NCBI RefSeq assembly: GCF_044324785.1
Contig: NZ_CP172127.1
Origin: Escherichia coli
GTDB taxonomy: Bacteria; Pseudomonadota; Gammaproteobacteria; Enterobacterales; Enterobacteriaceae
Length of the DNA stretch: 64,000 bases
Strand: one strand, 5' to 3'
The notes under the pieces were generated by a model. That model was not told where the DNA came from and made no database searches. It saw only the letters and a list, made by a program, of their open reading frames with translations. Of the stretch, positions 58,690-58,852 are shown in pieces; positions within the stretch are counted from its first letter, which is position 1, and every line of letters starts with the position of its first letter. Position numbers and translations under genes: made by a program.

Positions 58690-58699
58690 GGTCTGAATT

Positions 58700-58797
58700 G
58701 CCGGATGCGGCGTGAACGCCTTATCCGACCTACAAAATAGCGCAAATTCAATATATTGCACCATCCTCGCAGGCCTGATAAGCGTAGCGCATCAGGC
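58700..58797. repeat. REP-like palindromic units at the kdpE-pgm junction
   Basis: GCCGGATGCGGCGTGAACGCCTTATCCGACCTAC (58700-58733) and GCAGGCCTGATAAGCGTAGCGCATCAGGC (58769-58797). Confidence 0.65.
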
Positions 58798-58807
58798 AGT
58801 CATAAGT

Positions 58808-58840
58808 AAAAAAGGGCGATCTTCCGACCGCCCTTTTTCT
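58808..58840. terminator. Bidirectional intrinsic terminator between convergent kdpE and pgm
   Basis: AAAAAGGGCGATCTTCCGACCGCCCTTTTTCTT; stem with A-tract and T-tract on either side. Confidence 0.65.
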
Positions 58841-58852
58841 TATTAAATGTGT

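Follow-up and report, generated by a model that had tools for sequence, protein, structure and literature searches.

In Escherichia coli K-12, the operon for the inducible ornithine decarboxylase and the putrescine/ornithine antiporter (speF-potE; mild acid stress, high ornithine; 10.1101/604074) separates kdpE from pgm, whereas in a 64,000-nucleotide stretch of E. coli DNA (contig NZ_CP172127.1; in its full length called here the window) the two genes converge directly upon each other. The question raised by this locus is whether the short junction, in which the original prediction saw a likely recombination scar filled by REP units, records a deletion peculiar to one strain or is a regular state of the interval. 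The answer that we consider probable as a whole is that four kdpE-pgm alleles segregate naturally in E. coli and that the window has the most compact of them, devoid of both the speFL-speF-potE cassette and ybfP. Found in hundreds of genomes made public before, the allele is an ordinary minority gene-content polymorphism assembled from known parts.

Anatomy of the junction and its counterpart in K-12

The gap between the stop codons of the convergent genes measures exactly 163 bp (58690-58852), just as predicted, and the gene calls on both sides were confirmed. To the left lie kdpD (55331..58015, + strand; sensor kinase, 1838 bits against the NCBIfam KdpD equivalog), whose product is found with exactly the same sequence widely in E. 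coli, and kdpE (58012..58689, + strand; response regulator), which is intact, encodes 225 amino acids and ends with TAG. To the right lie pgm (58853..60493, - strand, stop codon at 58853-58855), coding for a phosphoglucomutase of 546 amino acids, the length of the annotated Pgm, and, upstream of it in the same orientation, seqA (60519..61064, - strand; NCBIfam SeqA equivalog), annotated also in E. coli N3 and K-12. KdpE (487 bits versus a cut-off of 325) and Pgm (1073 bits versus 778) pass their NCBIfam equivalog cut-offs over the full length, and so do the products of kdpD, seqA and ybfF around them. The kdpE gene of the window differs from that of K-12 at 32 nucleotide positions that result in a single amino acid change. 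In the 3' half of the gene (58200-58700), nucleotide divergence is locally at its highest whichever genome is compared (89.5-97% identity, a range obtained also over 58400-58600, with nearby sequence typically at 97-100%), the differences being nearly all synonymous, and at least three types of kdpE 3' end occur in E. coli, namely ...GCTTTGA, ...GCCATGA (known also from Salmonella and Citrobacter) and ...GCTTTAG. Recoded or synthetic DNA, considered because the proteins looked identical to those of K-12, was rejected, the differences being of a natural kind, mostly in third codon positions and with a few amino acid changes. In N3, the closest complete genome with a junction of the window type, kdpB and kdpE are annotated as frameshifted (411-2458 and 5713-6389 of the compared region L001), reflecting either real decay or sequencing error; the kdp genes of the window are intact.

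According to the alignment of junctions, a 10-nt spacer (GGTCTGAATT, 58690..58699) leads from the kdpE stop codon to the first of two REP units, REP1 (58700..58733, + strand), which is y-like, stands in the iREP orientation and ends with CTAC (58730-58733) by the definitions of PMC3333891. It is followed by an L-type BIME linker of 35 nt (58734..58768) and by REP2 (58769..58797, - strand), a z-like unit with GCAG at 58769-58772. The two REP-like palindromes that had been predicted are real: judged from shuffles, zero chance matches to either pattern are expected in the window, an inverted-repeat search shows the two units to be mutually inverted with pairing arms, and megablast queries containing them hit at least 40 pieces per genome in thousands of E. 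coli genomes, as befits a high-copy family. Taken together, REP1 and the linker show 89% identity to another BIME copy of K-12, located between chiP and glnS. A putative IHF-binding site lies at 58746-58758 of the linker, where ATTCAATATATTG, read by eye, agrees with eight of the nine specified positions of the IHF consensus WATCAANNNNTTR.

A single inverted REP pair with a long conserved linker, the latter frequently containing an IHF site, defines BIME-1 (PMC3333891). The element in the window resembles this class in its two inverse REPs, present in a single copy at the locus, and in lying outside genes where two convergent genes end; K-12 has it downstream of pgm as well. The 35-nt linker, with its IHF-consensus-like site, may be of the conserved kind. 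It departs from the canonical IHF-binding arrangement (y REP, L linker, z1 REP) in REP2, whose foot reads GCAG instead of the conserved GTAG; the assignment of the window's REPs to the y and z1 types is one of resemblance rather than of a scored model. The foot of REP1 keeps CTAC, whereas the GCAG of REP2 corresponds to GTAG in K-12 and in the comparison loci L004 and L005. The tetranucleotide GTAG is needed for binding by the REP-associated transposase (PMC3333891). An Rfam scan of the junction returned nothing above the gathering score and hence no evidence of a distinct sRNA gene. Sub-threshold matches comprise ES036 (CssrF sRNA) at 58734-58776 (33.5 bits versus a gathering score of 37.6) and, for the REPs, the REP-derived family naRNA4; both families probably represent REP/BIME derivatives here rather than separate genes. 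In E. coli G12 (H3, NZ_CP129272.1), an IS200C-family transposase gene is annotated inside the match to the pgm 3' flank, so the REP cluster of this locus may have been struck by an insertion sequence, too.

Between the BIME and pgm lies a predicted bidirectional intrinsic terminator (58808..58840), AAAAAAGGGCGATC-TTCC-GACCGCCCTTTTT, recognised by its inverted repeat and fold energies. Its arms (58809-58821 and 58826-58838) form a GC-rich stem of 13 bp with a 4-nt loop, preceded by an A run and followed by a T run that yield UUUUUU on the - strand and UUUUUCUU on the + strand. On the pgm strand the fold reaches -22.8 kcal/mol (z = -7.1), on the kdpE strand -17.3 kcal/mol (z = -5.0), energies attained by none of the shuffles, so the strong hairpin noticed earlier is borne out, with its role as a terminator remaining a prediction. 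A simple terminator scan called only weak sites within kdpE and missed this hairpin because at one position of the stem an A stands opposite a C. Flanked by A/T runs on either side and stable on both strands, the structure is like a bidirectional Rho-independent terminator between convergent genes. It stands ~15 nt from the pgm stop codon, and in E. albertii and in those E. coli that have speF-potE directly next to pgm (type I below) it is the sole sequence between potE and pgm. In the latter arrangement the terminator is shared by pgm and potE, the latter ~20 nt away, whereas in the window its partner on the + strand is kdpE, ~120 nt away across the BIME. The hairpin would end pgm transcripts directly and kdpFABCDE transcripts after read-through of the BIME, which would make up the 3' UTR of the kdp message. 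Protection of mRNA 3' ends is a known effect of REP hairpins; those of the junction may stabilise the kdp message, and the linker may bind IHF.

The order annotated in K-12 is kdpE-speFL-speF-potE-(kdpE' fragment)-(DUF2625 pseudogene)-ybfP-pgm, ybfP being annotated as a lipoprotein gene, and 5,857 bp separate the stop codons of kdpE and pgm; the K-12 gene order assumed in the original prediction was therefore right. The gene-content difference is equally real, as tblastn with the K-12 proteins SpeFL, SpeF, PotE, DUF2625 and YbfP found none of them in the 64-kb window, from which the speFL-speF-potE operon is entirely missing. What does not hold is the idea that REPs had come to fill the junction. 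Positions 58698-58852 of the window are homologous to the intergenic region between pgm and ybfP in K-12 (12001-12165 of the compared region L002), which contains the same succession of REP, linker, REP and hairpin; the BIME and the terminator are thus the pre-existing, native 3' flank of pgm. The kdpE' fragment of K-12 (ybfI; L002 10500-10641), just downstream of potE, duplicates 142 bp from the 3' end of kdpE; it is annotated as an incomplete winged-helix pseudogene and preceded by a REP remnant. Its grouping with kdpE alleles from empty sites proved uninformative, the fragment being 88-92% identical to all E. coli alleles.

Distribution of the alleles in E. coli and other Enterobacterales

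Queries designed for the junctions told apart four alleles, which together account for 5,344 of the 5,426 complete E. coli genomes searched. The commonest, type I (kdpE-speFL-speF-potE-56 bp-pgm), occurs in 3,164 genomes, and the K-12 arrangement, type II, marked by the kdpE' fragment and DUF2625, in 1,827; the cassette is thereby present in 92% of E. coli. In a further 353 genomes kdpE and pgm lie within ~1 kb of each other. About 114 of these (~2% of all) have the uninterrupted junction of the window, type IV, and the remainder (~239, obtained by subtraction) were assigned to type III, in which ybfP stands alone between the two genes (kdpE-REP-ybfP-BIME-pgm). The GCAG foot of REP2 is common to type III and most of the type IV genomes examined. 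Aligning the junction with those of other Escherichia, as had been proposed, hence upholds the difference from K-12 and at the same time shows that it is not private to the source strain. Literature searches on this kdpE-pgm polymorphism returned nothing specific.

The operon does not seem to have been kept at another place when absent from this one. About 5,051 records match speF-potE at an identity of at least 90%, 295 genomes are without a match and 81 match only at 60-80%. The ~375 genomes thus lacking speF-potE at the 90% level anywhere agree in number with the 353 cassette-less intervals, which indicates, at the level of genome counts, that the operon was not retained elsewhere; judging from these counts in other complete E. 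coli, its presence elsewhere in the source genome of the window is unlikely.

The type IV allele is found in N3, PCN033, XH990, TUM14771 and outbreak strains of O145:H28, as well as in L005, a species-level relative 94.5% identical to the window, and the junction sequences differ by up to 8%. The best identity of the window to complete RefSeq genomes of E. coli is 98.4-99.0%. Two draft assemblies (GCA_043676975.1 and GCA_044161825.1) match it without any difference over 8,678 bp, including the 163-bp gap, and four further contigs (three draft, one from a metagenome) are 98.8-99.1% identical and have a 163-bp gap, too. Coverage of the source lineage by finished genomes is poor.

A sample of 80 species representatives of Enterobacterales, recovered with KdpE, places the E. 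coli alleles in a wider frame. The commonest state, found at 40 of the 80 loci, is the convergence of kdpE and pgm within 1.3 kb and with no cassette, as in Serratia, Dickeya, Pantoea, Erwinia, Buttiauxella, Kosakonia, Klebsiella/Raoultella and several Citrobacter. The genes speFL-speF-potE stand between kdpE and pgm at 28 loci, including those of E. albertii, the E. coli-like lineage E69, Salmonella arizonae, other Citrobacter, Enterobacter, Kluyvera, Lelliottia, Cedecea and more, and at the remaining 12 the locus is truncated or otherwise different. The distribution of the cassette is patchy across the order, always at the kdpE-pgm address, which is likewise its place in K-12, Salmonella, E. 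coli O157:H7, B2 strains and many Enterobacteriaceae. A palindrome TGAAT-N4-ATTCA, usually overlapping the TGA stop of kdpE, marks 22 of the 29 loci with a speF cassette or a speFL leader (28 of the 29 carry speF) and none of the 51 species loci without them, the first 120 nt after the kdpE stop having been searched in loci L004-L083 and L088-L090. The motif resembles what we take to be a single ARG box, i.e. half of an ArgR operator, an identification that is putative. The window keeps TGAAT alone of this palindrome (58694-58698), and speF goes unmentioned in PMC4381063.

Direct adjacency, being the majority state, would be the deep ancestral condition of the order, whose ancestor may never have had the cassette. 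The possibility that the window's junction is the common ancestral state, which had been named as a ground for abandoning the original prediction, accordingly finds a basis in the 40 directly convergent loci, but it does not extend to E. coli so simply: as far as Escherichia and the groups closest to it are concerned, presence of the cassette probably came before its absence.

Age and origin of the empty junction

All type III and type IV genomes have one left junction in common, in which kdpE ends with TAG and is followed by ~10 nt and then by a REP (observed spacer variants include GGCCTGAATT, GGGCTGAATT, GCGGTTAAAT and GGGAATAAATT); in cassette-bearing E. coli, kdpE ends with TGA and AT-rich sequence follows. 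Since this junction is found also in the 94.5%-identical lineage L005, the empty allele appears to be old, and the shared junction argues for one old structure rather than many fresh deletions from K-12-like parents. In trees inferred from 1.4 kb on each side, type IV is scattered and non-monophyletic, with the window, N3 and PCN033 placed with type III, and XH990 and O145:H28 with types I and II. Identity varies from stretch to stretch of the region and is lowest in the 3' half of kdpE. Such variation and the scatter of type IV would fit either recombinational shuffling of an old allele or its recurrent origin. The history that we favour would start from a cassette occupying the exact kdpE-pgm site before the origin of Escherichia, in line with the cassettes of E. 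albertii, Salmonella, Citrobacter, Enterobacter, Kluyvera and others, which have this site and left edge in common. A single ancient loss of this cassette would have created the kdpE-TAG, ~10 nt, REP junction of all type III and IV alleles, and homologous recombination would then have carried the empty allele among E. coli backgrounds. Finally, ~650 bp with ybfP would have been removed by recombination between direct 34-nt REP copies, with the crossover in CCTACA.

The last of these steps is suggested by the REPs themselves. In all three type III genomes examined, ybfP lies between two direct copies of a 34-nt REP, the kdpE-proximal copy reading GCGGCG...CCGACC and the pgm-proximal one GCAGCG...CCGGCC. 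REP1 of the window has both diagnostic bases of the kdpE-side copy and then the right flank of the pgm-side copy, which would put the join within the last six bases, CCTACA, although the argument turns on just the two diagnostic bases that separate the copies. REP1 of N3 is mixed, with one diagnostic base of each kind. The nearest relatives of the window over 12 kb are type III genomes, and the simplest reading is that ybfP (~650 bp) was lost by REP-REP recombination; as to the direction, which we infer, a type IV site that had taken up a ybfP segment bounded by REPs would show the same pattern. Recombination between dispersed or neighbouring REP copies is an established route of chromosomal rearrangement, and a join inside a 34-nt REP whose two direct copies surround ybfP in type III conforms to it. 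The interval CCTACA includes CC|TAC, at which the REP-associated transposase cuts in vitro (PMC3333891); recombination dependent on RecA would explain the join equally well.

Several other histories have to be weighed against this one. A recent deletion, private to the lineage, of the whole 5.9-kb block of the K-12 kind (speFL to ybfP), with REPs recruited to make the join, would account for K-12 holding the full block where the window has only 163 bp. We nevertheless consider it very improbable, as the BIME and the terminator are already at the same place in K-12, the same architecture occurs in ~114 complete genomes and a 94.5%-identical lineage with junctions diverged by up to 8%, the closest relatives of the window are of type III and not type II, and the kdpE' fragment and DUF2625 of K-12 have left no trace in the window. 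The earlier view of the junction as a recombination scar must hence be given up as far as a fresh or private event is meant, while a smaller scar, the REP-REP loss of ybfP, is plausible. An assembly artefact, i.e. a collapse across the REPs, which as repeats can confuse short-read assemblers, can be practically dismissed, since the 163-bp junction recurs in many finished genomes that were assembled independently of one another, as well as in draft contigs identical to the window. A more serious contender is that the site has never been occupied in the lineages concerned, having been kept in the state of the enterobacterial ancestor, and that the E. coli cassettes are later horizontal gains. 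Apart from the direct convergence in half of the species representatives, this would be in keeping with the second kdpE 3' end behind potE in K-12, as expected for the entry of a cassette into an empty site: the kdpE' fragment suggests the footprint of such an entry by recombination inside kdpE, at least for the K-12-type cassette. The potE terminator of K-12, which is of the E. albertii/E69 type, points the same way, and so do the deep allele classes of speF-potE, with 1,418 records at least 99% identical to K-12, 1,787 at 95-99% and 1,846 at 90-95%, a divergence far above that of typical core genes that suggests old or imported cassette alleles. Against a retained empty site stand the presence of the cassette in 92% of E. 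coli and, with the same palindromic left edge, in E. albertii, E69, Salmonella arizonae and several Citrobacter, as well as the derived look of the empty junction in E. coli, with its extra 7-8 nt and a new TAG before TGAAT/TAAAT. We therefore regard retention as unlikely. Secondary loss is made the likelier origin by the nearest relatives carrying the cassette with the same left edge, and we give it somewhat better than an even chance.

It is also conceivable that type IV is recurrent, each lineage having made its own REP-REP deletion of ybfP from type III by means of recA or the REP transposase. The scatter of type IV in the flank trees would be explained in this way, and the different combinations of diagnostic REP bases in N3 and the window would reflect different crossover points, with CCTACA offering the CC|TAC site that the REP-associated transposase uses in vitro (PMC3333891). 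Two bases are, however, too few to tell a crossover from a point mutation, and REP2 is without the GTAG needed for transposase binding, REP1 alone keeping its tetranucleotide. Moreover, the flanks of XH990 and O145:H28 group with types I and II rather than with type III, and their spacers differ (GGGCTGAATT, GCGGTTAAAT), a type III parent with such spacers being absent from the sample. Recurrence is thus a tentative alternative, carrying a real but clearly minor share of the probability, and the single old allele spread by recombination is the reading with which we proceed.

Consequences for the strain and the nature of the locus

If the gene content of the window is taken at face value, the strain should lack the ornithine- and acid-inducible ornithine decarboxylase together with the putrescine/ornithine antiporter. 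Potassium sensing and phosphoglucomutase would be retained, kdpD, kdpE and pgm being intact, and strains with the type IV allele presumably keep the constitutive speC. The allele may alter the results of ornithine decarboxylase tests and phenotypes under mild acid or membrane stress (for reported effects of potE see PMC6307189).

The locus makes a clean and small recombination hotspot, with four alleles in one species, one cassette address across genera and repeats at the switch points, features that include nothing unexpected for accessory-genome variation in E. coli. A more far-reaching interpretation, speculative and to our mind quite improbable, would see the interval as a long-lived multi-allelic polymorphism of ornithine decarboxylase, maintained by niche-dependent or balancing selection and paralleled in Citrobacter and other genera, with REP/BIME elements as switches and empty sites taking up cassettes again. 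The REP-associated transposase would be a possible agent of the switching, and the kdpE' fragment of K-12 a footprint of re-acquisition.

Elsewhere in the window, a ~13-kb block between cydA and sucD (~4700-17700) encodes, by homology to the annotation of N3, the methylaspartate mutase subunits S, L and E, methylaspartate ammonia-lyase, an AtuA-family protein, a dicarboxylate symporter, a class I fumarate hydratase, a cobalamin adenosyltransferase and a LysR regulator. Positions 1-25000 of the window are covered to at least 80% in ~1,120 of the 5,426 complete E. coli genomes.
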